From assembly GCA_029863605.1 (NCBI GenBank), contig JAOTVB010000001.1:160187-224186 (forward strand): a stretch of 64,000 nt of DNA. Reading direction: 5' to 3'. Of this stretch, positions 4,311 through 61,431 are shown piece by piece. How positions within the stretch are numbered: the first letter of the stretch is position 1; each line of letters begins with the position of its first letter. A program made the position numbers and the translations under genes. The notes beneath the pieces were generated by a model. It ran no database searches. It worked only from the letters and a program-made list of their open reading frames with translations, and was not told the origin of the DNA. Source of the stretch: Myxococcales bacterium (GTDB lineage: Bacteria > Myxococcota_A > Polyangia > Polyangiales > Houyiibacteriaceae).

Positions 4311-4537
4311 GTCTCCTCCCCGTACCCGACAGGCTGATCATAACCACTTGGGCCGCACAAAGCCAATCGAGCGGGAACTTTACAGCAGGCTTCACATTGG
4401 CGTCCGTTCGGATGGAGGGGCTCTAACCACATGAGATCACAACTGTTCCCACGCGTGAGCTCCACAGCGCATCCTGGAATCCTGCTACTTATTTCAGAGT
4501 CTTGGGTCTGCTATGCAGAAAGTATAGGGATCCTATC

Positions 4538-5896
4538 ATGCGCCGAGTTCTGGTCGTCGACGACGAAGAAAACATCCGGGTCGTGCTCCGCACGCTCTTG
4601 AAGAAGCACAACTACCAGGTGGAGGCTGCCAATTCCGCGGAGACCGCCCTCGAGCAACTCGAGCGCTTCGATCCCGACTTCGTGCTCGCCGACGTTCGGA
4701 TGAGCGGAATGACCGGTCTCGAGCTCTGCGCCGAGCTCAAAGCACGCTCGTCGCTTGCGACCGTGATCTTGATGAGCGCCTACGGTTCGGTCGACTTGGC
4801 GATCGACGCGATGAAAGCCGGCGCCTACGACTACATCTCGAAGCCCTTCAAGCAGGACGAGGTGTTGCTTGCGCTCACCAAAGCCGAAGAGCGCGAGACG
4901 CTCCGTCGGGAAAATCGCGCGCTCAAGGAAGCGATGCGCAAGGAACGAACCTTTCACGACATCCTCGGAAAGAGTGATGCCATCGAGAAAGTCTTTGCGA
5001 CGATCGGTAAAGTCGCCGACTACAAGACCACCGTTCTGATCCAAGGCGAAAGCGGTACCGGCAAGGAGCTCGTTGCACGTGCGCTCCACCTCGGGAGCCC
5101 AAGAAAAGACAAGCCGTTCATTCCGCTCAACTGCGGTGCAATCCCCGAGACCCTTCTCGAAAGCCAACTTTTCGGCCACAAAAAAGGGGCATTCACCGAT
5201 GCCCACGTCGACAAGCGCGGGCTATTCACCGAAGCGGATCAAGGCACGCTATTCCTCGACGAGATCGGAGAGCTGCCGCTCGGTTTGCAGGTGAAGTTGC
5301 TGCGCGTGCTTCAAGAGGGCCGGGTTCGTCCCGTCGGGGCAAACCGCGATCAAGAGGTCGACGTGCGCGTCATTGCAGCCACCGTGCGGGACCTACAACG
5401 AGAGGTTGCTGAAGGACGGTTTCGCGAAGACCTCTACTACCGATTGAACGTGTTGCAGATCAACGTGCCGCCACTACGCGATCGACGCGACGACATCATG
5501 TTGCTCGTCGATCATTTCATCGAACGCAACAACAGCCGTCTCGGCACCAAGATTCGCGATGTCGATCAGAAGGCACGCAAGCTGCTGCTCAATTATCCTT
5601 GGCCGGGGAACGTGCGTGAGCTCGAGAACACGATCGAGCGGGCCGCAGTCCTCTCGGAAAGCGACGTAGTCGGCGTGGGCGACCTGCCGGAACGCATGCG
5701 CGAACCAGCCGATCCTGTCGCCGCGAGCCTTGCCACCGGTGAGCTTTCGATCAAGAAGACCGCCCGATTCATGGAAGAGACGTTGATCCGGCGCGCTCTC
5801 GAAAAGACCGGCGGAAACCGAACGGCAGCCTCGAAATTGCTGGAGATCAGCCACCGCGCTCTACTTTACAAGATCAAAGATTATGGGATTCACTAG
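4538..5896 (+). CDS. sigma-54-dependent response regulator (NtrC family: REC + AAA+ + Fis-type HTH)
   Basis: MRRVLVVDDEENIRVVL... with ADVRMSGMTG (receiver Asp). It has the GESGTGKE Walker A, the HKKGAFTDA (GAFTGA-loop variant), the ELENTIERA sensor region, and a C-terminal NRTAASKLLEISHRALLYKIKDYGI HTH. The start is chosen at ATG 4538 rather than the ORF-track TTG/GTG 4502. Confidence 0.9.
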   Translation: MRRVLVVDDEENIRVVLRTLLKKHNYQVEAANSAETALEQLERFDPDFVLADVRMSGMTGLELCAELKARSSLATVILMSAYGSVDLAIDAMKAGAYDYISKPFKQDEVLLALTKAEERETLRRENRALKEAMRKERTFHDILGKSDAIEKVFATIGKVADYKTTVLIQGESGTGKELVARALHLGSPRKDKPFIPLNCGAIPETLLESQLFGHKKGAFTDAHVDKRGLFTEADQGTLFLDEIGELPLGLQVKLLRVLQEGRVRPVGANRDQEVDVRVIAATVRDLQREVAEGRFREDLYYRLNVLQINVPPLRDRRDDIMLLVDHFIERNNSRLGTKIRDVDQKARKLLLNYPWPGNVRELENTIERAAVLSESDVVGVGDLPERMREPADPVAASLATGELSIKKTARFMEETLIRRALEKTGGNRTAASKLLEISHRALLYKIKDYGIH

Positions 5897-11031: not shown

Positions 11032-11772
11032 TCACAGGCGGTCGACGAGGCGCACGGCGAAAGCCCCTGTGCCTCCATGACGCCGAGGTGCCGTGCAGAA
11101 GGCCAGCACATATCTTGCCGCTGCGCGCTTGCTGAGCGTGCCGACGATGTGCTCCCTGAGAGTGCCCTTGCCGCCAGGGCTGTGAAGCCCCTTGCCAACG
11201 ATGATCAGGACCCACCGGTGCCCGCACTCTTGGTGGTCGCGCACAAACCGCAGAACTCTGTGATCGGCTTCCGCCGCGGTCATCCCATGCAGATCGCATT
11301 CTGCCTCGATTTCGAGCCGAGGGTCCGCCAAGGTGTCGATAATGCTGGGGTGGGTCGCGTTGCGGTGGCCGAGGACACTTCCGTCGCTGTCGCGCTCCAC
11401 CAGAAGTGGCACTGTCGGCGTGTGTCTGGCCGAGACAGGCGAGCTTCGAGAAGCGCGTTGATCGTCGGAGGGCATCACGCGCTTCTTGACCCTTCCGCCA
11501 AGCGGCTTGACGTCCGAGAACGCCTCCCGCAGCGCGTCCTGATCGGCCTCCGAGCGTCCGCCGCCCGCCGCCGAGCCACCCTTGGTTCTGGCGCCTTTTC
11601 GTTTCGACTTGCCCACGACCCAACCATCATGAACCCCCGGCCGGCTCCCGCGCAATTGGCGCACCCGCTGCAGCTCACCTGCCTCGTGCGAAGAATCTTC
11701 GCCCGTCACCTCAAAACGATGCCCGCGAGCGGCGCCTTTGCCGGCTGCGAGGGTGGCACATCGCTTGCACAC
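11032..11772 (-). CDS. Smr domain-containing protein
   Basis: The C-terminal ~80 aa, ECDLHGMTAAEADHRVLRFVRDHQECGHRWVLIIVGKGLHSPGGKGTLREHI, match the Smr/MutS2 C-terminal nuclease-domain pattern (LDLHG…, …GKG.HS). The exact start is uncertain. Confidence 0.8.
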   Translation of the reverse strand: MCKRCATLAAGKGAARGHRFEVTGEDSSHEAGELQRVRQLRGSRPGVHDGWVVGKSKRKGARTKGGSAAGGGRSEADQDALREAFSDVKPLGGRVKKRVMPSDDQRASRSSPVSARHTPTVPLLVERDSDGSVLGHRNATHPSIIDTLADPRLEIEAECDLHGMTAAEADHRVLRFVRDHQECGHRWVLIIVGKGLHSPGGKGTLREHIVGTLSKRAAARYVLAFCTAPRRHGGTGAFAVRLVDRL

Positions 11773-11957: not shown

Positions 11958-13772
11958 TCAACCGGCCTTCGGGCCGTCCCGACGCGGGCGACGATTGCAC
12001 TCGAGTGCGGCCTTGCGAACACGCACCGCATCTGGGGTCACCTCGACGAGCTCGTCCTGGTCGATCCAGTCGAGCGCGGTCTCGATCGTGAGCTGGCGAT
12101 GCGGCGTGAGAATGACGTTCTCGTCCCGACCGGCCGCGCGAATGTTAGTCAGCTTTTTTTCACGGGTGCAGTTCACATTCAGATCACTCGGTCGGTTGTG
12201 CTCCCCTACGATCATGCCCTCGTAGACCTTGGTCCCGGCACCCACGAAGAGCTTGCCGCGCGGTTGTAGATTGAACAGCGCGTACGGCGTGGTCGTGCCT
12301 CCGCGGTCGGCGACGATCGCGCCGTTCTTACGTCGAAGAAGCGGGCCCGCGTACGGATCCCACCCCTCGAACATCGCGTTGAGAAGCCCCTCACCGCGCG
12401 TCTCGGTCATGAAGATCGAACGAAACCCGATCAATCCCCGCGACGGCACACGGTACTCAACACGAGCCCGATTGGCGCCGATCGGGTTCATCTTGCCCAT
12501 GACGCCCCGCCGATCGCCCAGCAACTGGGTGACCGTCCCGACGTGGGATTGCGGTACGTCGACTACCACGGTCTCGACGGGCTCGCACTTGCGCCCATCG
12601 ATCGTCCGAACCACGACCTCCGGCATTCCAAGCGCGAATTCGTAGCCCTCGCGGCGCATGGTTTCGGCCAAGATCGCCAGCATCAGCTCGCCGCGCCCGT
12701 ACACGACGAACGTGTCGGGTTCTTCGGTCTCTTCGACGCGCATGGCGATATTGCGCTGGGCTTCTTTGAGGAGTCTCTCGCGCACTTGCCGGGAGGTCAC
12801 GAAGTCGCCTACGCGCCCGGCGAACGGCGACGTGTTGACCAGGAAGCGGACTTTGATCGTCGGCTCTTCGACCGAAATGCGGTCGAGTGGGGCAGCGTGA
12901 CTTGGGTGTGTGATCGTGTCGCCGATGCGCACTTCTTCGATGCCAGAGATCGCGACGATGTCTCCTGCTGCCGCTTCGTCGATGCGCACCCTGTCGAGGC
13001 TCTCGAAGCCCCATAGGGCGCCGACCTTGCGCTCTACCGTAGCGTCGTGTCCGATGACAGCGACATTCTCGAGCGGTTTGATGGTCCCTCCGCGAATGCG
13101 TCCGATCGCTATCCGGCCGATGTAGTCGTCGTGAATGGTGTTGTGCACCAAGAGCTGGAGCGGAAGAGTCGCGTCGCCGTCAGGCGCAGGGAGGTACTCG
13201 ACGAGTGTTTCAAAGAGAGGTGTGAGGTCGGTCGAATCATCATCCAGCGCCCGCTTTGCGATCCCGTCCTTGCCAATGGCATACACCGTCGCGAAGTTCG
13301 CTTGCTCGTCCGTCGCACCGAGGTCGCAGAAGAGGTCGAAGAGCTCGTTGAGAGCCTCGTCCGGCCGGGCATCGCGCCGGTCGATCTTGTTGATCACGGC
13401 GACTACTGGAAGTCCGAGCTCGATGCACTTCGAGAGGACGAATCGTGTTTGCGGTAGCGCCCCCTCGGCAGCGTCGACCAGCAAGAGCGCTCCGTCGGCC
13501 ATTCGGAGAGTCCGCTCGACCTCGCCCCCAAAGTCCGCATGACCAGGGGTGTCGATGAGATTGATCTTGTAATCCTTCCAGCGAATCGACGCGTGCTTGG
13601 CGAGGATGGTGATCCCGCGCTCTCGCTCGAGGTCGTTCGAATCGAGGACACGTTCGCGCACGGCTTCGTTCGAGCGAAACACGCCCGTCTGATGCAACAT
13701 CGCGTCGACCAGGGTCGTCTTGCCATGATCGACGTGGGCGATAATCGCCACGTTTCTAAGCTTGTCCTGCAC
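11958..13772 (-). CDS. typA: translational GTPase TypA/BipA
   Basis: MQDKLRNVAIIAHVDHGKTTLVDAMLHQTG (G1), DTPGHADFGGEVER (G3) and NKIDR (G4). 604 aa, typical of BipA. Confidence 0.95.
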   Translation of the reverse strand: MQDKLRNVAIIAHVDHGKTTLVDAMLHQTGVFRSNEAVRERVLDSNDLERERGITILAKHASIRWKDYKINLIDTPGHADFGGEVERTLRMADGALLLVDAAEGALPQTRFVLSKCIELGLPVVAVINKIDRRDARPDEALNELFDLFCDLGATDEQANFATVYAIGKDGIAKRALDDDSTDLTPLFETLVEYLPAPDGDATLPLQLLVHNTIHDDYIGRIAIGRIRGGTIKPLENVAVIGHDATVERKVGALWGFESLDRVRIDEAAAGDIVAISGIEEVRIGDTITHPSHAAPLDRISVEEPTIKVRFLVNTSPFAGRVGDFVTSRQVRERLLKEAQRNIAMRVEETEEPDTFVVYGRGELMLAILAETMRREGYEFALGMPEVVVRTIDGRKCEPVETVVVDVPQSHVGTVTQLLGDRRGVMGKMNPIGANRARVEYRVPSRGLIGFRSIFMTETRGEGLLNAMFEGWDPYAGPLLRRKNGAIVADRGGTTTPYALFNLQPRGKLFVGAGTKVYEGMIVGEHNRPSDLNVNCTREKKLTNIRAAGRDENVILTPHRQLTIETALDWIDQDELVEVTPDAVRVRKAALECNRRPRRDGPKAG

Positions 13773-18534: not shown

Positions 18535-19914
18535 TCAGAAGACGTACGGGATAAACAAGTACGGGACTTCTTCGCAATAGCGATCCCAGTCCTTTCCGTA
18601 CTTCTTCTTGCACCGCGCGATGTCTCGACCGGCACGATGGAAGATCATGACCGTGAAGAAGGTGACGTAGAGATAGGGGAGAAAGTGATCAAACCCGCAG
18701 ATCAGGCCCCACGAAAGCGCCATCAAGATGTCCGCGGTGTAGTGGATCTTTCGGGCATGGGCCCACCAACCATCGACGAGAAGCTTCGACCCGGCTTCAG
18801 TTTCGAGGTAGCGCGGGTTTTTCAAGGTGCCCCAGGGGAGTTGCGGGAACGCCTTTCGTTTCACGTAGCTTCCGTTGAGTTGCATCCGGAAGCGATTGCG
18901 TTGGCTCTGCGCCGTGTCCCACACGTAATAGGCGCCGATCAATAGAGCGAACACGAAGACCGTGTATGGGACTGAATGCTCGAACGGCGGTCGGGACGCG
19001 ATGTACATCGAGTTGAAACAGTAGACGAAGGGCACGCCTGCGAGGTTCCAGAAGATCAACATCCAGCCCCACTTCTCGTAGAAGATGTCCCAGGTCGTGG
19101 GGATGCACTCTTCGCCCTTCATGCAGGCATTGGTGTAGAGCCAATGCGCCAGGACCATGAAGATCATCGGCGTGCTGACCAACCCGAAGGTTTCGTACTG
19201 GTGGGCGGCGGCGCTCGCGGTCAGCAAGAAGAGCATCAGCCAAGAAACCCGAACTTCGGCCCACATCTTGAGGTCGAGCGGCCCGATCCTCGGATTGAGC
19301 CAGGCGCCCATGAAAAAGTCGTAGAAGAAGCTCCCCGTCATGCGTTCGGCATTGCCCGTGATCTTCGCGCCGAAGTAAATCGCGAACGCCACGATATTCG
19401 CCGAGATCATCGAGACGATCATGAACGAGCCGAACTGGTCGTAGAGCGTTTGCAGTGGAAAGACACCGGTGAGGTGAAGGACTGCCATCGCGGCGAGCGT
19501 GATCCACCAAGCGGAGATCGCATTGCACCGGTAGACCAGTCGTTTGCCTCCGCGTGACGGAATCGGTAGGCCCTTGATTCTGATCCCGGGGAGGTATGCC
19601 GCCATCACTCCTTCGACGAACAGGAACGCCCAGTACATCCCGAATACGCGCCAGCTCGGAGCGGCGTAGGTCACGATCTGTTCCCATGCGCGGGCGAAGA
19701 ACGGGCCGATGTCGGCGAAGCCCGCCGGATGAAAGATGGCCCCTTCGTGGAACCGCCAGGCCATCCACAGGTAAAGCATCAACCCGTGCGAGACGGTCAT
19801 GAGCAGAGCGGCGCCGATCGTGCCTCCAAACTCACGAGTCGCTTCGCCCTTTTTGGCGGCTGCGGTGGGTGCAGCAGTTGGAGCCTGCAGTTTCGACCTC
19901 ATCGCCTTCTGCAT
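18535..19914 (-). CDS. ERG4/ERG24-family sterol reductase homolog
   Basis: 459-aa polytopic membrane protein. FYDFFMGAWLNPRIGPLDLKMWAEVR and the C-terminal signature LLVDGWWAHARKIHYTADILMALSWGL…FHRAGRDIARCKKKYGKDWDRYCEEVPYLFIPYVF match the eukaryotic sterol reductase family. Confidence 0.9.
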   Translation of the reverse strand: MQKAMRSKLQAPTAAPTAAAKKGEATREFGGTIGAALLMTVSHGLMLYLWMAWRFHEGAIFHPAGFADIGPFFARAWEQIVTYAAPSWRVFGMYWAFLFVEGVMAAYLPGIRIKGLPIPSRGGKRLVYRCNAISAWWITLAAMAVLHLTGVFPLQTLYDQFGSFMIVSMISANIVAFAIYFGAKITGNAERMTGSFFYDFFMGAWLNPRIGPLDLKMWAEVRVSWLMLFLLTASAAAHQYETFGLVSTPMIFMVLAHWLYTNACMKGEECIPTTWDIFYEKWGWMLIFWNLAGVPFVYCFNSMYIASRPPFEHSVPYTVFVFALLIGAYYVWDTAQSQRNRFRMQLNGSYVKRKAFPQLPWGTLKNPRYLETEAGSKLLVDGWWAHARKIHYTADILMALSWGLICGFDHFLPYLYVTFFTVMIFHRAGRDIARCKKKYGKDWDRYCEEVPYLFIPYVF

Positions 19915-20904: not shown

Positions 20905-23411
20905 TCGCCAATCGAGATCAAGCTCAATCGGGGTGCGCCGGCTTGGCGACTTGCATCGAGGTCGACTCGTACCGCCATCCGCCAGCTTCGATCGTTTTGG
21001 GGGTCGCGCAAAATTTGGGTGAAAGCCCATGCGGTCTCGCCGCGCTCGACGTCGATCTCTTTGGTGCTCCGCGCGTCGGGTCCGATCTGAATCTCATCGT
21101 ACTCGGCCCAGTAGCTTGCCAAAGCCTCGCGCAGCCGATCGGCATCCCAGTTGTCGTCCCCCGAGTCGACGAGCGCCTCGGCGGCGCGATCGTAGTGCTT
21201 GAAAGCGAGCAAACGCACGATCTTCCAGACTGCGTTCCGCACCATCGTCGTGAAGCCCCGGACGTCTTTGGTGATATCGGGCGGCTCATCGCTTTCACGC
21301 TCCGGTATGGGCGCGCCCGGTTCGATCGGTGCCTGGAGCTGCTCCCATTCGGCGAGCAGGCTCGCGTCGACGTAGCGTACCGAAAGCCCCAACCAGTCGC
21401 AGAGATCGTACAGTGCATCGGTCTTGGCAGATTCGGGGACGGTTTGAACTAGCGCCTTGTAGCTGTCGGTAAGATACCGGAGCAACACGCCTTCGGACCT
21501 CTGAAGGCCGTACTCCTTCACATATTCGACGAACGTCATGCCGAGCTCGTACATATCGCGGGCAATCGATTTCGGCCGAAGAATGTCGTTCCCGACCCAC
21601 GGATGCCGCTTCGCGAAGATGTCGAATGTCCCATACAGAAACTCTTCGTTGGGTTTCGGGTAGTCGATCTTTTCGAGCTCTTCCATGCGTTGGTCGTACT
21701 CCATGCCCTCGGCTTTCATCGCGGAGATGGCACGCGACTTCAGGATATCGGTTTGCCGATAGAGAATGGCCATCGGGTCTTCGAGGGTCGCTTCGACCAG
21801 GGTCAAGACGTCGAGCGCGTAGGCCGGGTCCTCAGGCTCGAGCACTTCGACCGCCTCGACGACATAGAGGGAGAGTGCCTGGTTGAGCGAGAAGTCCGAC
21901 TGGAAATCTTCATGGACCCGCGGACCGTCGCGATCGAGCTCGACGACCCCCGCGTCGCGAAGCGATCGGATCATCGCGATCGCGTTTCGTGCGTGCCGTC
22001 GCTTCGCAGTTGGGCCTTCGTGACTCTTTCGAATTAGCGTTCGAAGCGCCAGGCATCCATCGTCCTCGCGTTCGAAGAGGTTGAGGATCATCGCGTTGCT
22101 CACGACAAATCGCGATCTGAGCGGTTCCGGGTCCGAGTCTCGTAGACGGACGAAGGTGTCGGCATCCCAATGGGCATAGCCCCGTTCTGGGGGCTGGCGC
22201 ATCTTGAGCTTTCGAAGCTTCTTCTGGTCGTCACCTGCCTTGGCGCGAAGCTTCTTGTTCTCGATCGCATGGTCCGGTGCCTGCGCGACCACGCTGCCCA
22301 GCGTGTCGTATCCACGGCGGCCGGCCCGACCGGCGATCTGCTTGAAATCGCGGACCGTCAAGACCTTGGTGCCCTGTCCATCGTACTTGCAGAGCTTGGT
22401 GAAGAGCACCGTTCGAATGGGTACATTGACACCGACACCGAGCGTATCGGTCCCACAGATCACGCGGAGCGTTCCCTGTTGCGCGAGCCGTTCCACCAGG
22501 CGCCGGTACCGCGGCAGCATTCCTGCGTGGTGCACCCCGATCCCGTGGTGCAGAAACTTCTTGAGCTCCTTGCCGAACGGCGTGTCGAATCGCGTCTGGC
22601 GCAGCTCCTCCTTCATCGCCTTCTTCTGGTCCTTCGACAGGAAGTCGATGCTCATGAAGCTCTGCGCCTGCTCAGTCGCGGCTCGTTGCGCGAAGTGCAC
22701 GACGTACATGGGGGCCTTGCCGTCATCGAGCAGCTCGACGACCGTGTTGTGTAGGGGTTGCTCGGCGTAATCGAAATCGAGCGGAACGGGCCGGTCGGTG
22801 CTCTTGACCAACGTCGTTTGGACACCGGTAAGCTCGGTGACCGCCTCCTCGAACATCCGCGTGTCCCCGAGTGTGGCGCTCATCAACAAAAACCGCGCCT
22901 GTGGCAGGGTCAGTAGCGGGACCTGCCACGCTACCCCGCGGTCTCTGTCCGAATAATAGTGGAACTCGTCCATGACCACGCTGTCGACCTCAGCCCGTTC
23001 GCCCTCGCGGAGCGCCAGGTTCGAGAGGATCTCCGCCGTGCAACAGATCACCGGGGCATCGCGGTTGACGGTCGCATCGCCAGTCATCATCCCGACCCGC
23101 TGCGCGCCAAGCACGCGACAAAGGTCGAAGAACTTCTCACTCACCAACGCTTTGATAGGCGCTGTGTAGAAGGATCGTTCGCCGAGCGCGATCGATCGAA
23201 AGTGCATCGCCAACGCGACCAGTGACTTCCCGGAGCCCGTCGGCGTGTTGAGAATCACGTTGTTGCCGACGAAGAGCTCCATCACCGCCTCTTCTTGGGC
23301 GGGGTAGAGCTCGATTCCCTGGTCCGACACGTACTCGACGAACCGCATCAGCAGCGCATCGGGATCGACATCGGAGCCGAGCTCGTCGAGGTAGTGGTCA
23401 AGCGAAGCCAA
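20901..23411 (-). CDS. DEAD/DEAH-box (Ski2-like) helicase with long C-terminal domain (DUF3516-like)
   Basis: NTPTGSGKS (motif I), VVMDEFHYY (motif II), MSATLG (motif III), HHAGMLP and GRAGRRG (motif VI). 836 aa. Confidence 0.9.
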   Translation of the reverse strand: MASLDHYLDELGSDVDPDALLMRFVEYVSDQGIELYPAQEEAVMELFVGNNVILNTPTGSGKSLVALAMHFRSIALGERSFYTAPIKALVSEKFFDLCRVLGAQRVGMMTGDATVNRDAPVICCTAEILSNLALREGERAEVDSVVMDEFHYYSDRDRGVAWQVPLLTLPQARFLLMSATLGDTRMFEEAVTELTGVQTTLVKSTDRPVPLDFDYAEQPLHNTVVELLDDGKAPMYVVHFAQRAATEQAQSFMSIDFLSKDQKKAMKEELRQTRFDTPFGKELKKFLHHGIGVHHAGMLPRYRRLVERLAQQGTLRVICGTDTLGVGVNVPIRTVLFTKLCKYDGQGTKVLTVRDFKQIAGRAGRRGYDTLGSVVAQAPDHAIENKKLRAKAGDDQKKLRKLKMRQPPERGYAHWDADTFVRLRDSDPEPLRSRFVVSNAMILNLFEREDDGCLALRTLIRKSHEGPTAKRRHARNAIAMIRSLRDAGVVELDRDGPRVHEDFQSDFSLNQALSLYVVEAVEVLEPEDPAYALDVLTLVEATLEDPMAILYRQTDILKSRAISAMKAEGMEYDQRMEELEKIDYPKPNEEFLYGTFDIFAKRHPWVGNDILRPKSIARDMYELGMTFVEYVKEYGLQRSEGVLLRYLTDSYKALVQTVPESAKTDALYDLCDWLGLSVRYVDASLLAEWEQLQAPIEPGAPIPERESDEPPDITKDVRGFTTMVRNAVWKIVRLLAFKHYDRAAEALVDSGDDNWDADRLREALASYWAEYDEIQIGPDARSTKEIDVERGETAWAFTQILRDPQNDRSWRMAVRVDLDASRQAGAPRLSLISIGD

Positions 23412-23554
23412 TGCGAACCTTCCTGTGCGGGACTCTTAGCAGACCCGGTTTGCGGGTGACCTTTTTGCACGCCCCCCAAGAGTCGATGGCCCGCTGTGGC
23501 ACACATTACGTTGTGAGCCAGCTTGGAATTGCTTCACTTTTCGGCGCTCTTCAC

Positions 23555-23569
23555 TGGCATTCTTGTTGC
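23555..23569 (+). promoter_or_regulatory. candidate sigma-54 promoter (-24 TGGCAT / -12 TTGC)
   Basis: TGGCAT tcttg TTGC has exact GG-N10-GC spacing. It lies 40 nt upstream of ATG 23609 (SD aaaggag), is intergenic and is correctly oriented. Confidence 0.6.
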
Positions 23570-23608
23570 GTACTTCAAGACGCCGGGTATCCGTAAAGGA
23601 GAGTCAAA

Positions 23609-24661
23609 ATGAAGCGTTTTGGGTTTGCATGCGCCCTGCTGGTGGGCACGATTGGTTGCGGTCAAAGCGGCGACGTCGAGGGTCTCGAAGGCTTCGTATG
23701 CGGTACCGACGGTCGCACATACACGGTCGAACAAGCAGCCGAGCGCGATCACGAGGTGGCGCATCGGGGCAAATGCGACGCCCCGATGGGCTGCAGCACG
23801 CCAAGCGACTGCTTTGCGGGTGACGAGTGTAACGCAGACGTTTGTGTTCCCGTCCCAAGTGGTTGTCCTTGCGTAGGAGTCTTCGAACCGGTCTGCGGAG
23901 CCGACGGTCGAACCTACATCAACGCCTGCGAGGCGCGGTGCGTCGACGTCGGGGTCGTGCACCACGGAATGTGCGGGGATGACCCCTGTGCTCTGATCGA
24001 CTGCGCACCCGGGTTCATCTGTGAGCAAGGCCAATGTCTGCCCATCCAAGAGTGCGAGGGCAAGGAGTGCGAGCCCGACGAGATCTGTATCGACTGGCCC
24101 CAACAAGAGCCCGCCTATTGTGTGTGGGTCGGCTGCGACAGCGACGAGCAATGTCGTCGAGGGGAGCGTTGCGTGATCGATGACCCATGTCTCGCCCCGG
24201 CCGTGGTAGGCCCCTGCGACGCCGCGATCCCGAGGTGGTTCTACAACTCCAATACCGGTGAGTGCGAGCAGTTCACGTGGGGCGGTTGCGGTGGCAACGA
24301 CAACAACTTCGAAACTCGAGACGACTGCGAGGCCGCCTGCCCCGATCACGACGTTCCGAAGCTCAGCATCGCGCTTCGAGCCGGTCGCTGCGAGCCTGAT
24401 GTGTTCTGTCCCGAGGGGCGCTACGCACCGGAAATCTACGCGCCGGTTTGCGGAGTAGATGGTGTCACCTACAGCAACCCGTGCGAAGCCGAGCGCGCAG
24501 GTGTCGACATCGCGTACGACGGGGAATGCATCCCAGAAGTCACCTGCGTCGATCGGGGCTGCCCCGAAGGCTGGACGTGTGACTTCTGCCAGACATCCAG
24601 CGGGGCGCGCTACATCTGCTTGTCTCCGCTCGCCGGCGCGTGCTTGCCGCCGAGCGACTGA
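23609..24661 (+). CDS. lipoprotein with Kazal-type domains and one Kunitz/BPTI domain (protease-inhibitor-like)
   Basis: MKRFGFACALLVGTIGC is a signal peptide plus Cys. Kazal cores: CPCVGVFEPVCGADGRTYINACEARC…HHGMC and YAPVCGVDGVTYSNPCEAERAGVDIAYDGEC. The Kunitz domain is CLAPAVVGPCDAAIPRWFYNSNTGECEQFTWGGCGGNDNNFETRDDCEAAC (C-8-C-15-C-7-C-12-C-3-C). Confidence 0.85.
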   Translation: MKRFGFACALLVGTIGCGQSGDVEGLEGFVCGTDGRTYTVEQAAERDHEVAHRGKCDAPMGCSTPSDCFAGDECNADVCVPVPSGCPCVGVFEPVCGADGRTYINACEARCVDVGVVHHGMCGDDPCALIDCAPGFICEQGQCLPIQECEGKECEPDEICIDWPQQEPAYCVWVGCDSDEQCRRGERCVIDDPCLAPAVVGPCDAAIPRWFYNSNTGECEQFTWGGCGGNDNNFETRDDCEAACPDHDVPKLSIALRAGRCEPDVFCPEGRYAPEIYAPVCGVDGVTYSNPCEAERAGVDIAYDGECIPEVTCVDRGCPEGWTCDFCQTSSGARYICLSPLAGACLPPSD

Positions 24662-25016: not shown

Positions 25017-26027
25017 GTGGATCCATCATCAGTCTTGCAAGAAGCATCTGCGAAGCGGAAGCCCCCTCCCAGGGTATCCGGGGCCTGGACGAAGGGCGTC
25101 GTGTACGCGTTTCGGCGGCTGGGGCTCGACGTCGAGGAGCTGTGCGCCTCGATCGGCGTCGATATCGAGGTCTTCTTGGACACTACCGGTCGCCCAGCCC
25201 GCGATGCTTCAGGCCGCCTCTGGCGAGCAGCTCTCGTCCAGAGCGGTGATCGATTCCTCGGCCTGAACGCTGCCGAGGTCTGGGAGGCTCGGGTCGACCA
25301 TCTGGTCTTTCTGCTGCTTTTGAGCGCGGACACGTTTGGCGAAGGGCTCACGGCCGGCATTCGGTTTCAAGAGCTCCTCTCCCATGGGCGAGTCCTCACC
25401 TTTGGCGAGCATCCCAAGCACCATGCGCTTCATATCAACAGGATCGAGCACGAGCTTCCTGTGCTGGCGCACGAGGTCGAGTTCCTCGCTGCGATCTTGA
25501 CGAAGCTTTTTCGGTTTGCCACCGACGATGCGTTTGTCCTGGAGGAGGTCCACTTCGAGCATCCCTACCGGGGCAGCATAGAGAAGTACAGCCGCGCGTT
25601 TCGGACTACGGTGCTCTTCGGACAGAGCCGGAACACCCTGCTGATCGGCGACGATTCGTGGAACCTCAGCCTCGCGCATGGCAATCAGGTGCTCCACCGC
25701 GAGCTTCGCGGCATCGCGGCGGGGCTTCACGCGGGACATCCGGACCGTAGCTTCCTCGACAGCGTTCGCCACCGCATCAAGGGCCTTCTCCCCAAGGGCA
25801 ACTGCGGCGTCGAACCCGTGGCCACTGCGCTTCACATGACTCCTCGAACGCTACAACGACGCCTCCAAGAAGACGGCACCACTTTTCGCGCCCTCGTGGA
25901 CGCCACCCGAAAGTCGATCGTCCTCGACGGTGTGGAACGCCACCAGGCTCCAGAGGAAATCGTCCGCCACGCGGGCTTCACCAATCCCCGAAGCTTTCGC
26001 CGGGCGATGAAACGCTGGAATCTCTAG
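25017..26027 (+). CDS. AraC family transcriptional regulator
   Basis: C-terminal AraC-type dual HTH (VEPVATALHMTPRTLQRRLQEDGTTFRALVDATRKSIV… EEIVRHAGFTNPRSFRRAMKRW). The N-terminal region resembles the Arabinose_bd-type ligand domain. The start (GTG 25017) is uncertain. Confidence 0.85.
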   Translation: MDPSSVLQEASAKRKPPPRVSGAWTKGVVYAFRRLGLDVEELCASIGVDIEVFLDTTGRPARDASGRLWRAALVQSGDRFLGLNAAEVWEARVDHLVFLLLLSADTFGEGLTAGIRFQELLSHGRVLTFGEHPKHHALHINRIEHELPVLAHEVEFLAAILTKLFRFATDDAFVLEEVHFEHPYRGSIEKYSRAFRTTVLFGQSRNTLLIGDDSWNLSLAHGNQVLHRELRGIAAGLHAGHPDRSFLDSVRHRIKGLLPKGNCGVEPVATALHMTPRTLQRRLQEDGTTFRALVDATRKSIVLDGVERHQAPEEIVRHAGFTNPRSFRRAMKRWNL

Positions 26028-28302: not shown

Positions 28303-29547
28303 GTGCCGGCTTCCGCCCATTCCAGCTTGCAAGCAGTTCTCGAAACGGACCGCGTGCGGATTTTGTCGTCGCTCATTCGGACCTGCGGAGGTGATTTCGA
28401 CCTTGCCGAGGAAGCCCTTCACGATGCGGTCATCGCCGCGACAACCCAATGGCCCCAGCACGGTGTGCCGGATGCCCCCGATGCGTGGCTTCTTCAGACC
28501 GCTCGACACAAAGCGATCGACGCGATCCGGCATGACCAACGCAAGCGACAAAAGCTCGAAGAGCTCGGATACACCACCGAGCTCTTACGGGAGGAAGAGG
28601 AGTTGACCCCGATCCCTTACGACATGCTGCGCTTGATCTTCACGTGCTGTCACCCGGCGCTGAGCGAAGAGTCCCGGCTGGCGTTGACCCTGCGGACGGT
28701 CGTGGGGCTCCCGACGACAGGGATTGCGCGCGCGTTCCTGGTGACCGAACAGACCATGGCCCAGCGTCTCGTGCGCGCGAAGAAGAAGATCCGCGAAGCG
28801 CGCATCCCGTATCGGGTCCCCGAACGCAGTGATATGCCCGAGCGGCTCGAAGCGGTGCTCTTGGTGATCTACCTGGTCTTCAACGAAGGCTACAGCGCCT
28901 CGAGTGGCGAGCACATCGTGCGACGGGAGCTCTGTGCACACGCGATCCACATTGGGAGGATTCTCTCGGAGCTGATGCCAGACGAGAGCGAAGCGATCGG
29001 GCTCTTAGCGCTAATGCTTTTGCAGGACTCGAGACGCGAGGCGCGGGCCAACGCCGAGGGTGACCTCGTGCTGCTACGCGACCAGGACCGCCGCCTCTGG
29101 GACCGTGAGCAGATCGACGAAGGGGTTCGGCTGTGTCGTGCGGCCCACCGTGCGCCGCCGGTTGGAGCCTATGCGATCCAGGCAGCGATCGCGGCGGAGC
29201 ATGCCCGCGCGGTCCACGCCGAAGACACAGACTGGAAAAAGATTGTGCGGCTCTACCGTCAGCTCCTGAGCCTGAGGCCCACTCCGGTCGTCGCGCTCAA
29301 TCATGCCGTGGCGGCAGCGATGGCCTACGGTGCCGAAGAAGGGCTTCGCTTGGTCGATTCGCTTGCGAAAGATCTGGACGGCTACGGACCGTTTCACGCG
29401 GCCCGCGCCGATTTCTGTCGGACCACCGGTCGCTGGCAGGACGCCGAGGATGGGTACCGGCGTGCGATCGCGCTCGCCACCAATGACCCGGAGCGGCGCT
29501 TCCTCGAAGGGCGGCTCCGAGAAACGCAAGAGGCTGTGGACCACTGA
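28303..29547 (+). CDS. ECF-type RNA polymerase sigma factor with long C-terminal extension
   Basis: Sigma-2 (…FDLAEEALHDAVIAATTQW…WLLQTARHKAIDAIR) and sigma-4 (LPTTGIARAFLVTEQTMAQRLVRAKKKIREA), followed by a ~200-aa TPR-like tail. It starts 23 nt after the YciI gene, a commonly seen pairing. Confidence 0.85.
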   Translation: MPASAHSSLQAVLETDRVRILSSLIRTCGGDFDLAEEALHDAVIAATTQWPQHGVPDAPDAWLLQTARHKAIDAIRHDQRKRQKLEELGYTTELLREEEELTPIPYDMLRLIFTCCHPALSEESRLALTLRTVVGLPTTGIARAFLVTEQTMAQRLVRAKKKIREARIPYRVPERSDMPERLEAVLLVIYLVFNEGYSASSGEHIVRRELCAHAIHIGRILSELMPDESEAIGLLALMLLQDSRREARANAEGDLVLLRDQDRRLWDREQIDEGVRLCRAAHRAPPVGAYAIQAAIAAEHARAVHAEDTDWKKIVRLYRQLLSLRPTPVVALNHAVAAAMAYGAEEGLRLVDSLAKDLDGYGPFHAARADFCRTTGRWQDAEDGYRRAIALATNDPERRFLEGRLRETQEAVDH

Positions 29548-32835: not shown

Positions 32836-32850
32836 TGGCACGCCCCTTGC
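32836..32850 (+). promoter_or_regulatory. candidate sigma-54 promoter (consensus TGGCAC-N5-TTGC)
   Basis: TGGCAC gcccc TTGC lies 25 nt upstream of ATG 32875, with SD gaggagg in between. It is intergenic and correctly oriented. Confidence 0.65.
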
Positions 32851-44949: not shown

Positions 44950-44964
44950 GCACGAGGCGTGCCA
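44950..44964 (-). promoter_or_regulatory. candidate sigma-54 promoter (TGGCAC-N5-GTGC on minus strand)
   Basis: The minus strand reads TGGCAC gcctc GTGC, 38 nt upstream of ATG 44912. It is identical to the 15-mer at 45166-45180 on the plus strand. Confidence 0.55.
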
Positions 44965-45165: not shown

Positions 45166-45180
45166 TGGCACGCCTCGTGC
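45166..45180 (+). promoter_or_regulatory. candidate sigma-54 promoter (TGGCAC-N5-GTGC)
   Basis: TGGCAC gcctc GTGC lies 52 nt upstream of ATG 45232 (SD ggag). Confidence 0.55.
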
Positions 45181-47852: not shown

Positions 47853-49487
47853 TCATTTCGTGACGTTCAGCTTCAGCTTCTTCTTCTGGCCCGGCCGGAG
47901 TCGGATGGTTTGAGTGACCGTAGGCTCCCCCTGGCCGGCGCCGATTCGATAGCGGCCGGGCTTGAGCGAGAGGTTCTTCAGTGGCGCGGTTCCCCGTGGC
48001 TTCCCGTTGATCCAGACGTCGCCCCAGGGGTAGACGACGACAGTCAGGCTTGCGGGTGCCTGGAGCGCCGGCTCCGCGCGCGGTTCTGGCTTCGGCTGGG
48101 CGCTCGCTGCCTCGGACTCGTCGGCCGAAGTTGGCGGCTCATCGATCTTCGACTCTTCGGGCTCGACGCCCGGCTCGACTTGGTCGACCGCGACGACCGG
48201 CTCGGCTTCGAACTCACTCGCGGCGGGTAAAGTCTCTTGGCCCGCGTCGCGCGTTGCGCGCCAGGCCAGCGCGCCCCCGGCCAACAGCGCGACGGTGAGC
48301 AACAACGCCGTGACCGCTCTGCTCCGTCGTCGCCCTGGCAACGTGCCGGTCACCAACGATTCCGATTGGACTGGGCTTGGTGGCTCAGGCGCGGGTGGTC
48401 TGCTCTCGGCCCAACGCTCGACCTGCTTCTGTCCTTCTCCTGCGCCAACGATTCCGCTGATCTGTTCGCCTGCCTCTGCCCCTACGCTGTCTGGCTGATG
48501 GGCTGTCGCCTGCTCGCCGAACGCCTGCAGTTCTGCTTCCGCGGGCCGGAGCTCGGCAACTCTCTTGCCGAGCTCGCGCCGAACCCGCGGAACGGGCACG
48601 AACGGATCGAGGAGCTCGGTCAACTGTGCAGCGCTCGCGGGGCGCTTGTCGCGGTCCGGTTCGATGAGGCTCTCGATCAACGCGCAGAACTCAGGCGGGG
48701 CTCCCGGTGCAAGCGAAGCGAGCGGCTGATGTTGACCCTGCAGGATCAACATGATCGTTGCGGGGTCGTGACCGCCTTCGTAGGGACGCTGCCCGCACAG
48801 CGCTTCGAACAGGACAACGCCCACCCCGAAGAGGTCCGCGCGTCCATCCAGCGGCTCGAGTCGCAACTGCTCAGGCGACATGTACGGAATCTTGCCCTTC
48901 ACGGCGCTCTGTTGCCGCGAGCTCCCTGTGACCGCTTTGGCAACGCCGAAGTCGCTCAGCATGATTTCGCCGTGAATGCTGATGAGCACGTTCGACGGGG
49001 AGATGTCGCGGTGGACGATCGCCGCAGCATGCCCGCCATCAAAGCTGCTGTCGCGAGGCGGGTTGTGTGCGTGGTTCAGCGCTGCAGCGAGGTCGTGGCC
49101 GAGGAGCGCGACCCGCTCCGGCGAAAGTCGCTGAGCGCTTTCGGCGTCGAGCAGGACCCGGAGGTCCACACCGTCGACTAGCTCCATGGCCATGTATGCA
49201 CGGCCTGCGATTTCTCCGAAGTCGATGACACCGACGATGTTGCTGTGACGCAACTTCGCGGCGAGTCGCGCTTCGCGTTGAAATAGCTTTACGAACTCCT
49301 CGTCTTCGCGAAAGAAGGGCAGTACGAGCTTGAGACACACCCGCTGAGAGAACCCGCTAGGCCCACGCCGGATGGCCACGAAGGTTTCGGCCATTCCACC
49401 CATGCCCAGCCGTCGCACCAACGTGTAGGGTCCAATCTCCGTCCCGAGCAAATCGCTTGAAGAGGCATCAAAGTCGATTTTGGACAT
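47853..49487 (-). CDS. Ser/Thr protein kinase with C-terminal PEGA domain
   Basis: GMGGMAETFVA (G-loop), VCLKLV (Lys), HRDISPSNVL (catalytic loop), DFG and PYMSPEQ. One TM helix (AVTALLLTVALLAGGALAW) and a PEGA-like tail LTVVVYPWGDVWINGKPRGTAPL…PGRYRI. Confidence 0.9.
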   Translation of the reverse strand: MSKIDFDASSSDLLGTEIGPYTLVRRLGMGGMAETFVAIRRGPSGFSQRVCLKLVLPFFREDEEFVKLFQREARLAAKLRHSNIVGVIDFGEIAGRAYMAMELVDGVDLRVLLDAESAQRLSPERVALLGHDLAAALNHAHNPPRDSSFDGGHAAAIVHRDISPSNVLISIHGEIMLSDFGVAKAVTGSSRQQSAVKGKIPYMSPEQLRLEPLDGRADLFGVGVVLFEALCGQRPYEGGHDPATIMLILQGQHQPLASLAPGAPPEFCALIESLIEPDRDKRPASAAQLTELLDPFVPVPRVRRELGKRVAELRPAEAELQAFGEQATAHQPDSVGAEAGEQISGIVGAGEGQKQVERWAESRPPAPEPPSPVQSESLVTGTLPGRRRSRAVTALLLTVALLAGGALAWRATRDAGQETLPAASEFEAEPVVAVDQVEPGVEPEESKIDEPPTSADESEAASAQPKPEPRAEPALQAPASLTVVVYPWGDVWINGKPRGTAPLKNLSLKPGRYRIGAGQGEPTVTQTIRLRPGQKKKLKLNVTK

Positions 49488-58497: not shown

Positions 58498-60114
58498 ATG
58501 GACTACGACGTCATCATCATCGGTAGCGGCTTCGGCGGGAGCGTCCCCGCGCTTCGTTTGACTGAAAAAGGCTACCGAGTCGTGGTGCTCGAGCAAGGGC
58601 GGAGTGTCTCGCCTGACGACATGCGGGCAGCCGATCGGAGCATGCGGAAGCTGTTTTGGATCCCTCAGCTCGGCTTTCACGGTTTTTTCGTTCAGCACAT
58701 CTTCAGGCATGTCGGCATTGTGGGCGGCGTCGGCGTCGGCGGAGGAAGCTTGGTCTACGCGGCGGTGTTGTTGAAGCCCGGCGACGCGTTTTTTGAAGAC
58801 CGTGCCTGGGCGGGTCTCGGGGTCGATTGGAAAGAAGAGCTCTCCCCGCATTACGCCACTGCCGAAGCGATGCTGGGACGAACGCCCAACCCCGACTACG
58901 GCAAGATGGACGATTGGCTGCGCGCAACCGCCGAAGCAATGGGGGCAGGTGAAACGTTTGGCCCCGTCCCGCAGGGGATCTACTTCGGGGAAGCAGGCGA
59001 GACCAAACCTGACCCGTTTTTCGACGGCGCGGGCCCGGCGCGAACCGGCTGCACGCGTTGCGGAGGATGCCTGACCGGCTGCGCCGACGGCGCGAAGAAC
59101 AGCCTCGACAAGAACTACCTCTATTTGGCGCGGAAGCTCGGGGCCGAGGTTCTGTCGGAGCGAAAGGTGGTTTCAATCCGGCCACTCGAAGGGGGCGGCT
59201 ACGAAATTCAAACCGTGAACCCGCTGCGTCGGGGACAGGATCATCCACCGCTTCGTGCGCGGCGCGTGATCGTATCCGCCGGGGTGGTTGGGACCCTTGA
59301 TCTACTGTTCAAATGCCGGGACGAGCTCGGAACCCTTCCCGAGATCTCGTCGAGGCTGGGTGACGTGGTGCGAACCAACAGCGAAGCGATCGTGTCTGCG
59401 CTCTCACCAAACCCCGATGATGACCTCACGTACGGTGCCGCGATCTCCTCGCATTTCCACGCCAACGCGCACACCCACATCACGCAGAACCGTTTTCCAC
59501 CAGGTTACGACTTCATGCGGTGGTACATGGGACCGCTCATCGATGGCCCAAAGGCTTTCGGCCGCGCCATTCGCACGATCGTCGCCATCGTGTTGCACCC
59601 GATCCGAATGCTCCGGGCACTGTTCGCACGCAATTGGCACAAGCGGATCACCGTGTTGACCGTGATGCAAAATCTCGACAGCCAAATCGCGTTTCGCCGA
59701 GGCCGGCGACTGCTTTGGCCCTTCAAGCCTGCGCTGCACTCCACGGTAGGCCCAGGTGGCGGCACGCCAGCATACATCCCCGAGGCCAACGAGGCCGCCC
59801 GCAAGCTCGCCGAGCACATCGGCGGAACCGCCCACAACAACGTGCTCGAAAGCGTTGGAAACCTGTCGGTCACCGCTCATATCCTCGGCGGATGCGCGAT
59901 GGCCGCAACGCCCGACATCGGCGTGGTCGACATCGACCACCAGGTGTTCGGCTACCCGGGACTCTTCGTAAGCGATGCTTCCGCGATCCCGGCCAACGTT
60001 GGCGTCAATCCCGCGCTGACGATCACCGCCCTTGCCGAACGCTTCAGCTCGCGCTTTCCAGCGAAGGACGGAAGATCGGCCCCGGTGCGAAAATCGCCGG
60101 CGACGCGCACGTGA
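58498..60114 (+). CDS. GMC family oxidoreductase, ChoD-like (putative cholesterol/3-beta-hydroxysteroid oxidase type)
   Basis: ATG 58498: MDYDVIIIGSGFGGSVPALRLTEKGYRVVVLEQGR is an FAD GxGxxG. GVGGGSLVYAAV, GAGPARTGCTRCGGCLTGCADGAKNSLDKNYL, RTNSEAIV, LTAHILGGC and GVNPALTITALAERF run colinear with mycobacterial ChoD as I remember it. Confidence 0.85.
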   Translation: MDYDVIIIGSGFGGSVPALRLTEKGYRVVVLEQGRSVSPDDMRAADRSMRKLFWIPQLGFHGFFVQHIFRHVGIVGGVGVGGGSLVYAAVLLKPGDAFFEDRAWAGLGVDWKEELSPHYATAEAMLGRTPNPDYGKMDDWLRATAEAMGAGETFGPVPQGIYFGEAGETKPDPFFDGAGPARTGCTRCGGCLTGCADGAKNSLDKNYLYLARKLGAEVLSERKVVSIRPLEGGGYEIQTVNPLRRGQDHPPLRARRVIVSAGVVGTLDLLFKCRDELGTLPEISSRLGDVVRTNSEAIVSALSPNPDDDLTYGAAISSHFHANAHTHITQNRFPPGYDFMRWYMGPLIDGPKAFGRAIRTIVAIVLHPIRMLRALFARNWHKRITVLTVMQNLDSQIAFRRGRRLLWPFKPALHSTVGPGGGTPAYIPEANEAARKLAEHIGGTAHNNVLESVGNLSVTAHILGGCAMAATPDIGVVDIDHQVFGYPGLFVSDASAIPANVGVNPALTITALAERFSSRFPAKDGRSAPVRKSPATRT

Positions 60115-60330
60115 CCCTGTGCCGGTGCCAGGTCCCACACGGTCCTCAACGCCCTGGGCGCAGCGCTCGCACTGATCAACTGGCCAATCGAAATCGACGT
60201 TGACGCTGCCTAGCACCGCCTACGTCGGCTTGCTGTGAAGGGAACCTCGTCGTGTCCGGCGTGGCACGCGATGGCACACCCGCATACCCTTGCATACCCT
60301 GGAAATGCTGGAGTTTCGCGGTTCCCGCGT

Positions 60331-60345
60331 TGGCATCGATGTTGC
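60331..60345 (+). promoter_or_regulatory. candidate sigma-54 promoter (-24 TGGCAT / -12 TTGC)
   Basis: TGGCAT cgatg TTGC lies 37 nt upstream of ATG 60382. It has the same box sequences as 23555-23569. Confidence 0.6.
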
Positions 60346-60381
60346 TTTAAGGGTAGTTGTCTCTTGTCCAGCGAGGACGAC

Positions 60382-61431
60382 ATGAAACGAGTTTGCCTAG
60401 CCATCATCGCTGTCACGGTGGGCCTTTGGGGTTGTGGCGGGGCCGGGGAAGCTCTCGGCACCGAGGGGTTCATCTGCAGCATCGAGGGGAACACCTACAC
60501 GCTCAAAGAGGCGGCTGAAGGGGGACACGAGGCCCGGCACCGCGGTCGATGCGACGATCCGATGTACTGCGAGGCGCCGACCGATTGCTTCGTCGGTGAC
60601 CGGTGTATGCCGACGGTCGCCCCGGCAGACGAAGGGGGAGCAGGGTTGCTTGCGAATGAACCCGTCCCGCACTGGTGTGTTCCTGGCCCTACGCACTGCA
60701 ACTGTCCCACCGTGTACCAACCGGTCTGCGGCACGGATGGCCGCAACTACGTAAGCGCGTGTGAAGCCGCCTGCGCCGGGGTAAGCATTGCGCACGAAGG
60801 GTATTGCGAGGAACCGCCTGGAGCTGCCTGCGTCCGCGGTGGATGCAGCGGGCAACTCTGCGTCGAAGAGGGTATGGACATCGCCAGCACGTGCGAGTGG
60901 CGCCCCGTGTACCAGTGCTACCAAGAAGCCACTTGTGAGCGTCAGCTCAACGGACAGTGCGGATTCACGCCCACACACGAGCTGGTCGAGTGCCTCGAGC
61001 AGTTCGGCGAGTGCCAAAGCAACGACGACTGCCCGGGCCGCTTGATCTGCTACCCGCCGACCAAGACCTGCCAGCCGAGCTGCGAGATCTACTGCTTCCG
61101 GTATGACCCGGTGTGCGGGACGGACGGCGTCACCTACGCTTGTGGCGTCGCCGATGCGCACTGCCATGGCGTCGAGGTCGCGTATGAGGGGGAGTGTATC
61201 CCGGGTCCGATGTGCGGTGGCTTCAACACGGGCACATGCGCAGACCCAAGCCTGAGCTGCGAGTGCTGCCCAATCGGCGGTCCCGCACAGAGCTGTCTCT
61301 GCTCGACGCCCTGCCACAGTGATGACGACTGCACTGATTCGAGCCGGCCGACATGCAACCGGCCCGACTTCGTCGGTTCGACGGGCTTTTGCGCTCCGGC
61401 AGCGTTCCAGTGCTGCTGGTTCTGTTTCTGA
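60382..61431 (+). CDS. lipoprotein with Kazal-type domains and an eight-cysteine module (paralog of 23609..24661)
   Basis: Trimmed to ATG 60382: MKRVCLAIIAVTVGLWGC. Kazal cores: CNCPTVYQPVCGTDGRNYVSACEAACAGVSIAHEGYC and CFRYDPVCGTDGVTYACGVADAHCHGVEVAYEGEC. The N-terminal 60 aa are colinear with protein 23609. Confidence 0.85.
   Translation: MKRVCLAIIAVTVGLWGCGGAGEALGTEGFICSIEGNTYTLKEAAEGGHEARHRGRCDDPMYCEAPTDCFVGDRCMPTVAPADEGGAGLLANEPVPHWCVPGPTHCNCPTVYQPVCGTDGRNYVSACEAACAGVSIAHEGYCEEPPGAACVRGGCSGQLCVEEGMDIASTCEWRPVYQCYQEATCERQLNGQCGFTPTHELVECLEQFGECQSNDDCPGRLICYPPTKTCQPSCEIYCFRYDPVCGTDGVTYACGVADAHCHGVEVAYEGECIPGPMCGGFNTGTCADPSLSCECCPIGGPAQSCLCSTPCHSDDDCTDSSRPTCNRPDFVGSTGFCAPAAFQCCWFCF

Follow-up and report, generated by a model that had tools for sequence, protein, structure and literature searches.

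Upstream of two paralogous genes in a 64,000-nucleotide stretch of a Myxococcales bacterium genome (contig JAOTVB010000001.1, positions 160,187 to 224,186; this whole stretch is referred to below as the window), we describe a conserved module of about 115 bp consisting of box 1, a tandem repeat (box 2), TGRAAT (box 3), a T-run (box 4), a -24/-12 core and the ribosome-binding site GGAGAG. The two genes, here termed A and B, code for probable lipoproteins with Kazal domains. We assign a probability of roughly 0.8 to the reading that each of them lies behind a sigma-54 (RpoN)-dependent promoter carrying an upstream enhancer for an activator. A sigma-54 promoter had been proposed at both genes in the first-pass annotation of this DNA, and the proposal is borne out as far as comparative sequence analysis can carry it, the core being kept in 36/36 checked relatives and in 38 aligned upstream regions. 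What is new here is the motif of the enhancer with its strict geometry, as well as the link between this motif and a Kazal/Kunitz lipoprotein family in uncultured marine Myxococcota, while the general understanding of how sigma-54 promoters work is left unchanged.

The core element and the upstream boxes

At both genes, the GG and GC doublets of the core are exactly 10 bp apart and stand in the correct orientation towards the gene. The pattern TGGCAY-N5-TTGC has four matches in the window, all on the forward strand, against 0.20 expected by chance, and 0/100 shuffled sequences reached four. With a relaxed -12 element the number of matches rises to seven (0.9 expected), five of which have a correctly oriented start codon 24-52 nt downstream. 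No sigma-70-like -35/-10 promoter was detected in 23300-23700 around the start of gene A or in 60080-60480 around that of gene B. Given the geometry of the core, the predicted transcription starts fall about 12 nt past it, close to 23581 (gene A) and 60357 (gene B), leaving predicted leaders of 25-28 nt that include the conserved GGAGAG.

Further upstream, the two leaders share boxes at similar distances from the core, and on re-reading the sequence all coordinates and spacings previously given for the core, for TGGCACAC and for the 12-mer CYTGGAAWTGCT at both genes turned out to be exact. The remainder of the two intergenic regions had been described as diverged, which agrees with our count of 18/77 identical positions outside the boxes. 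The boxes themselves are of unequal weight. CYTGGAAWTGCT has two matches in the window against 0.03 expected, while TGGCACAC by itself is not enriched (two matches, 1.72 expected) and draws its significance solely from its fixed offset and from being one half of a larger motif. This larger motif, TGGCNCG-N3-TGGCACA, again has two matches, which are found only at genes A and B, against 0.09 expected. The earlier choice of boxes therefore needed some redrawing: TGGCACAC is conserved at its fixed offset but is only the 3' half of the tandem TGGCNCG-N3-TGGCACA, and the 12-mer has a TGRAAT core that is conserved family-wide but its remaining positions are not, with a conserved T-run following 11 nt later. 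Box 1, TGACCTTTTTGCA, is a further conserved element upstream in gene A beyond those first noticed, and it is recognisable in the window only there. Box 1 and box 2 together hold three T(T/G)GCA-like half-sites whose first bases are 22 and 10 nt apart, which places them on one face of the helix. All positions are summarised in Table 1.

Table 1. Elements of the module at genes A and B, the two genes, and the enhancer-binding protein genes of the window. A3 is the alignment of 38 upstream regions; negative numbers count from the predicted transcription start.
Feature	Position	Strand	Remarks
Gene A	23609..24661	+	350-aa probable lipoprotein; one Kunitz/BPTI and two Kazal domains (Pfam)
Gene B	60382..61431	+	349-aa probable lipoprotein, Kazal domains only (Pfam); paralog of gene A
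Gene A, putative sigma-54 -24/-12 core TGGCATtcttgTTGC	23555..23569	+	GG 23556-57, GC 23568-69; TTGC end 40 nt from ATG 23609
Gene B, putative sigma-54 -24/-12 core TGGCATcgatgTTGC	60331..60345	+	TTGC end 37 nt from ATG 60382
Gene A, predicted transcription start	23580..23582	+	from standard sigma-54 geometry, with C of the GC doublet (23569) as -12
Gene A, ribosome-binding site GGAGAG	23598..23603	+	A3 columns 207-212; 0.97 identity A-type vs B-type
Gene A, box 1 TGACCTTTTTGCA	23457..23469	+	about -124 to -112; ends in TTGCA; A3 columns 47-61 high-information
Gene A, box 2, tandem direct repeat TGGCCCG-ctg-TGGCACA	23487..23503	+	10-bp period; about -94 to -78
Gene B, box 2, TGGCACG-cga-TGGCACA	60262..60278	+	same tandem motif
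TGGCACAC	gene A 23497-23504; gene B 60272-60279	+	58 / 59 nt upstream of the -24 box
12-mer CYTGGAAWTGCT	gene A CTTGGAATTGCT 23522-23533; gene B CCTGGAAATGCT 60298-60309	+	33 nt upstream of the -24 box in both
Gene A, box 3 TGGAAT, core of CTTGGAATTGCT	23524..23529	+	about -57 to -52; A3 columns 125-130
Gene B, box 3 TGGAAA, inside CCTGGAAATGCT	60300..60305	+	from sequence and alignment
Gene A, box 4, T-run TTTT	23538..23541	+	about -43 to -40, one helical turn after box 3; A3 columns 139-142
Gene B, box 4, shortened T-run TTT	60314..60316	+	from sequence and alignment
NtrC-type response-regulator enhancer-binding protein	4502-5896	+	Sigma54_activat and HTH_8; non-canonical loop GAFTDA
Second enhancer-binding protein, 688 aa	49497-51566	-	Sigma54_activat and HTH_8; loop GSFSGA; long N-terminal region without Pfam match

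Conservation of the module among relatives

A protein search returned many full-length relatives in metagenome-assembled genomes (MAGs) of Myxococcota/Polyangiales, down to about 33% protein identity, and through scans of genome and metagenome contigs 160 loci were fetched, corresponding to 1.03 Mb of DNA with flanks. Upstream regions of 38 loci were aligned with MAFFT (A3) and their weighted information content was computed; ten of these loci are orthologs of gene A (A-type) and the other 28, gene B included, are called B-type. TGGCA[CT]-N5-TTGC is located 50-65 nt before the ATG in 36/36 checked relatives with a located start codon and upstream sequence, and the gap from TTGC to ATG is 35-44 nt in all 38 aligned loci. 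In the 1.03 Mb, the strict core motif has 44 matches, 41 of them just upstream of a family gene and 0 on the opposite strand. The core motif is absent from more distant Kazal proteins (Saprospiraceae, Woeseiaceae and others).

The first-pass annotation had named loss of the boxes in orthologous promoters as the observation that would speak against it; instead, the alignment of 38 regions shows the boxes to be conserved. T,G,G,C,A and T,T,G,C of the core are invariant in 38/38 loci, as is the TGGCACA box, and within the tandem repeat the columns T,G,G,C,-,C,G and T,G,-,C,A,C,A of A3 show no change. In box 3, the two A's and the T of TGRAAT have near-maximal information in the weighted profile, one A being strictly invariant. 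Between A-type and B-type sequences, box identity ranges from 0.75 to 0.97 (box 1 0.75, box 3 0.75, box 4 0.89, GGAGAG 0.97), compared with 28% identity over the 102 non-box intergenic columns, a value near the level of unrelated sequence of like composition. That the boxes are kept in orthologs with such spacers between them argues for functional cis elements, as had been suggested from the two window copies. Exact TGGCNCG-N3-TGGCACA is found once in each of 40 loci and always on the forward strand, and since these exact-pattern counts exclude it, the conserved blocks are not alignment artefacts.

The distances between the blocks are conserved as well as the blocks. The tandem repeat lies 68 nt from the core in 26/38 loci (range 66-71), the box 1 TTGCA begins 22 nt ahead of that repeat in 27/38, and box 3 starts 29-31 nt before the core in nearly all. 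A divergent family member (locus L130, 3802-3874) has kept the tandem repeat, GAAAAC...TTTTCC blocks and a TGGCAT-N5-CTGC core, with a repeat-to-core distance of 58 nt, which is 10 nt, or about one helical turn, shorter than 68. Taken together, these distances are suggestive of a helical-phase constraint between enhancer and core, with the reservation that the loci are related by descent. Pairs of module-bearing paralogs were found in single MAGs (L001 and L012; L002 and L016; L007 and L018). MAGs with the module include JAOTYL01, JBFICQ01 and JAHELW01. A search with an nhmmer profile of the module over 1.1 Mb returned no sites beyond the family genes, and no further copies of the module were found upstream of other genes in the window or in the 1.1 Mb of flanks.

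Two other roles for box 1 were considered and rejected. The copy in the window scores as terminator-like; across the family, a hairpin before a T-run occurs in 7/38 loci versus 22% of shuffles, and a role as intrinsic terminator or insulator is rejected. The second alternative starts from B-type loci, in which an exonuclease-like gene lying upstream ends on the TGA contained in box 1. The box is not explained as the 3' end of that gene, since A-type loci, with a divergently oriented gene upstream, conserve it equally.

The leaders also carry subfamily-specific sequences between the predicted start and the ATG. In A-type leaders (L001-L007, L081-L083; window 23583-23603) CGGGTATYC is followed after 3-4 nt by AAGGAGAG, and in its place B-type leaders have a C-rich run before GGAGAG. 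These may represent a translational or leader element.

Proposed mechanism, known systems and competing explanations

To open DNA, sigma-54 polymerase depends on an AAA+ enhancer-binding protein (EBP) that binds some 100 bp upstream and is looped to the core (PMC4641369). Following this scheme, sigma-54 RNA polymerase would bind TGGCAT-N5-TTGC as a closed complex, and initiation would take place only upon remodelling by an EBP bound upstream. The enhancer, or upstream activating sequence, is most likely the tandem repeat TGGCNCG-N3-TGGCACA, and box 1 probably assists it in gene A and in most relatives; the repeated half-sites fall within roughly 70-150 bp upstream of the predicted start, where an enhancer would be looked for. 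Tandem direct repeats have also been proposed as the site of the Myxococcus xanthus activator Nla28 (PMC9765219). Between enhancer and core, the role of TGRAAT and TTTT (-57 to -40) is probably DNA bending or the binding of a bending protein or of the alpha subunit of polymerase, which would aid loop formation, with the T-run of box 4 as a putative bend, IHF-like or UP-like element. The paralogs, at least two per genome with the module, would form a small regulon under one unlinked activator.

The organism appears to use the sigma-54 system, as the window encodes two EBPs, neither of them linked to the Kazal genes (Table 1). Proteins combining Sigma54_activat and HTH_8 domains act only with sigma-54. 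The second of the two genes adjoins a Ser/Thr protein kinase gene (47853-49487).

Several observations weigh against a sigma-54 promoter with an enhancer at these genes. Relative to the consensus TGGCACG-N4-TTGC(T/A) (PMC9765219), both cores deviate at two or three less critical positions, reading TGGCATT or TGGCATC in place of TGGCACG and, in gene A, having a G after TTGC. The rpoN gene is not encoded within the 64-kb window. No EBP gene was found within 4 kb at any of the 160 fetched loci, the module-bearing ones having neither a GAFTGA-like loop nor a tblastn match to an EBP AAA+ domain in that range, and the activator would therefore be unlinked to the Kazal genes. Box 1 is decayed at gene B (7/14 positions) and therefore cannot be essential in every copy. 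The match to the Escherichia coli IHF consensus WATCAANNNNTTR between enhancer and core is weak, with 2-3 mismatches at best, and the specificity in Myxococcota may differ from it; at two mismatches, this E. coli consensus is matched in 11/38 loci versus 13% of shuffles, which is slightly better than chance. With so marginal a match, a bending-protein site at the A/T blocks is putative. Lastly, the aligned sequences share descent, so that the counts of loci are not independent events.

These points set against the conserved core and its spacing, the module belongs, on all the defining features that can be read from sequence, to the known class of enhancer-dependent sigma-54 promoters. It resembles the classical examples glnAp2/NtrC, nifH/NifA and Pu/XylR (PMC4641369) in having a -24 GG/-12 GC core at fixed spacing with no -35/-10 pair, repeated sites about 80-125 bp upstream, and an A/T-rich stretch at the place where IHF or a bend assists looping in classical promoters. 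It differs from them in that the repeats are direct with a 10-bp period, whereas NtrC and NifA sites are typically inverted, in that the half-sites TGGCNCG/TGGCACA resemble the -24 element itself, and in that the E. coli IHF consensus is not clearly present and no activator gene is adjacent. Closer in taxonomy are the Nla28 promoters of M. xanthus (PMC9765219), likewise sigma-54 promoters of Myxococcota, where tandem direct repeats, each about 7-8 bp long and located upstream of the core, have been put forward as the activator sites. The Nla28 half-site CT(C/G)CG(C/G)AG has variable spacing and many of its promoters are intragenic (PMC9765219), unlike the module with its TGGCNC(G/A) half-site, strict 10-bp period, fixed 68 nt to the core and intergenic position. 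The PilR-dependent pilA promoter of M. xanthus shares the TGGCAT variant of the -24 element (TGGCATG, listed in Table 1 of PMC9765219) and also drives a gene for an exported protein, however the gene is unrelated and the activator different.

The resemblance of the half-sites to the -24 element leads to another way of reading the enhancer, which has a small chance of being correct: the enhancer may be built from the promoter's own elements, one TTGCA and two TGGCNC phased by 22 and 10 nt, and be read by sigma-54 or its holoenzyme or by an activator mimicking sigma-54. If true, this would be a "landing pad" that concentrates polymerase beside the real promoter, and a sigma-54 architecture not described before, specific to the Kazal/Kunitz lipoprotein regulon of uncultured marine Myxococcota. 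In a related proposal, sigma-54 or its holoenzyme would, in place of an activator, occupy the TGGCAC repeats and box 1's TTGCA, using them for docking or as a decoy. Box 2a indeed reads CTGGCACG in most loci, which is nearer to the -24 consensus than the true core is, and box 1 ends in a -12-like TTGCA. The arrangement does not fit, though: within box 2 the GG and GC doublets stand one nt closer together than the obligatory spacing, the position of box 1 on the upstream side of box 2 reverses the order of the elements, A-type loci have TGGCCCG or TGGCTCG and thus lose the A of the -24 element, and no precedent was found in the literature. We consider a docking or decoy site improbable.

It is equally doubtful, in our judgement, that the blocks serve ordinary transcription factors as operators, the promoter being of sigma-70 or extracytoplasmic function (ECF) type and the -24/-12 likeness coincidental. 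OmpR/PhoB-type regulators typically recognise direct repeats with a 10-bp period, a winged-helix response regulator could for example bind box 2, and such an arrangement would agree with the lack of an EBP linked to the Kazal genes; the window also holds an AraC-family gene (25017-26027) after gene A and an ECF-type sigma gene (28303-29547). The AraC-family neighbour is, however, absent from B-type loci, neither leader has a sigma-70-like -35/-10 pair, and both sigma-54 elements occur at exact spacing in every locus, with TGG, C, A and TTGC invariant. Moreover, about 55 nt separate the repeats from the closest downstream site that polymerase could occupy, a distance beyond the reach of a class I/II activator acting at the core.

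A conserved non-coding stretch of about 115 nt directly before a gene could in principle be a cis-regulatory RNA, in which case transcription would come from further upstream and the blocks would belong to a structured leader or a small RNA. This is very unlikely given that RNAalifold on the 38 sequences yields -2.4 kcal/mol and seven pairs with no compensatory change, and that Rfam at the gathering threshold has no match in the whole window. The blocks are also short, with spacers that are unconstrained in sequence but fixed in length, and the three TGGCA copies, being in direct orientation, have no means of pairing among themselves. Finally, the idea that the shared boxes are functionless leftovers of a recent duplication or chance matches, for which one might cite the paralogy of genes A and B and the unremarkable count of TGGCACAC alone (2 vs 1.72 expected), can practically be dismissed in view of the 34% protein identity of the paralogs, the 18/77 agreement of their leaders outside the boxes, the persistence of the boxes in 38 loci from many MAGs with spacers at 0.28 identity, and the near absence of the core motif elsewhere in the 1 Mb of flanks.

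Returning to a sigma-54 promoter with an upstream enhancer, we found in the literature no prior description of sigma-54 together with Kazal proteins in myxobacteria, nor of TGGCAC direct repeats as an EBP site, and no regulatory data for this uncultured marine Myxococcota group. The module thus offers a candidate binding motif (TGGCNCG-N3-TGGCACA with TGACCTTTTTGCA) for an orphan EBP, with which complete MAGs may be searched for other members of the regulon and the activator sought in DNA-binding screens. A further prediction is that the Kazal and Kunitz lipoprotein paralogs share their regulation and are induced by a signal, not constitutive.

Gene products, neighbours and other sigma-54-like sites

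The proteins of genes A and B are 34% identical (E = 8e-40) and hence paralogs, and both are probably lipoproteins, as their signals end in GC. The start codon of gene A and its signal ending in GC are kept in 15 orthologs in the protein alignment. An identical gene A is present on a contig of JGI sample 3300022209, from the source sediment. Some gene callers extend orthologs upstream, however we rejected an N-terminal coding extension because 23609 is the first start after an in-frame stop, the MKRF start is conserved in the aligned full-length relatives, and the spacers of the upstream region vary by 1-2 nt. A role as protease inhibitors is suggested for the products by their Kazal and Kunitz domains. 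The Kunitz/BPTI domain of gene A (Pfam E = 2.4e-21) makes it a bacterial lipoprotein in which Kunitz is paired with Kazal, and the strongest Kunitz-only matches of the protein include eukaryotic ones; this mixture suggests an unusual domain history.

The upstream neighbour of gene A is a divergent DEAD/DUF3516 helicase gene. At B-type loci, which lack the AraC-family neighbour, a helicase gene and an exonuclease-like gene lie upstream.

Other sigma-54-like sites are present in the window. An exact 15-nt inverted pair of TGGCACGCCTCGTGC at 44950-44964 (-) and 45166-45180 (+), each copy a sigma-54-like -24/-12 box, lies 37-52 nt upstream of two divergent ATGs at 44912 (a 211-aa protein of unknown function) and 45232 (an S8 subtilase with Big_7/PKD domains), and the two look like divergent sigma-54 promoters. 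Should the Kazal/Kunitz products inhibit proteases, secreted proteolysis, represented by this subtilase with its sigma-54-like promoter, and its inhibitors may share sigma-54 control, although this is speculative. TGGCACGCCCCTTGC at 32836-32850 (+), 24 nt before ATG 32875, is likely another sigma-54 promoter, here without the tandem TGGCAC enhancer; the reading frame that follows has a GAGGAGG ribosome-binding site and codes for a lipoprotein-like protein of 366 aa with no Pfam match. TGGCACATCGCTTGCA at 11754-11768 (+) is a near-consensus sigma-54 box that faces the 3' end of the convergent typA/bipA gene (11958-13772, -), with no forward-strand gene downstream, and could be spurious or drive an antisense or small RNA.

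Away from these sites, the window contains an ERG4/ERG24 sterol reductase family gene (18535-19914, -; Pfam E = 3e-133), whose family is known chiefly from the synthesis of sterols in eukaryotes.

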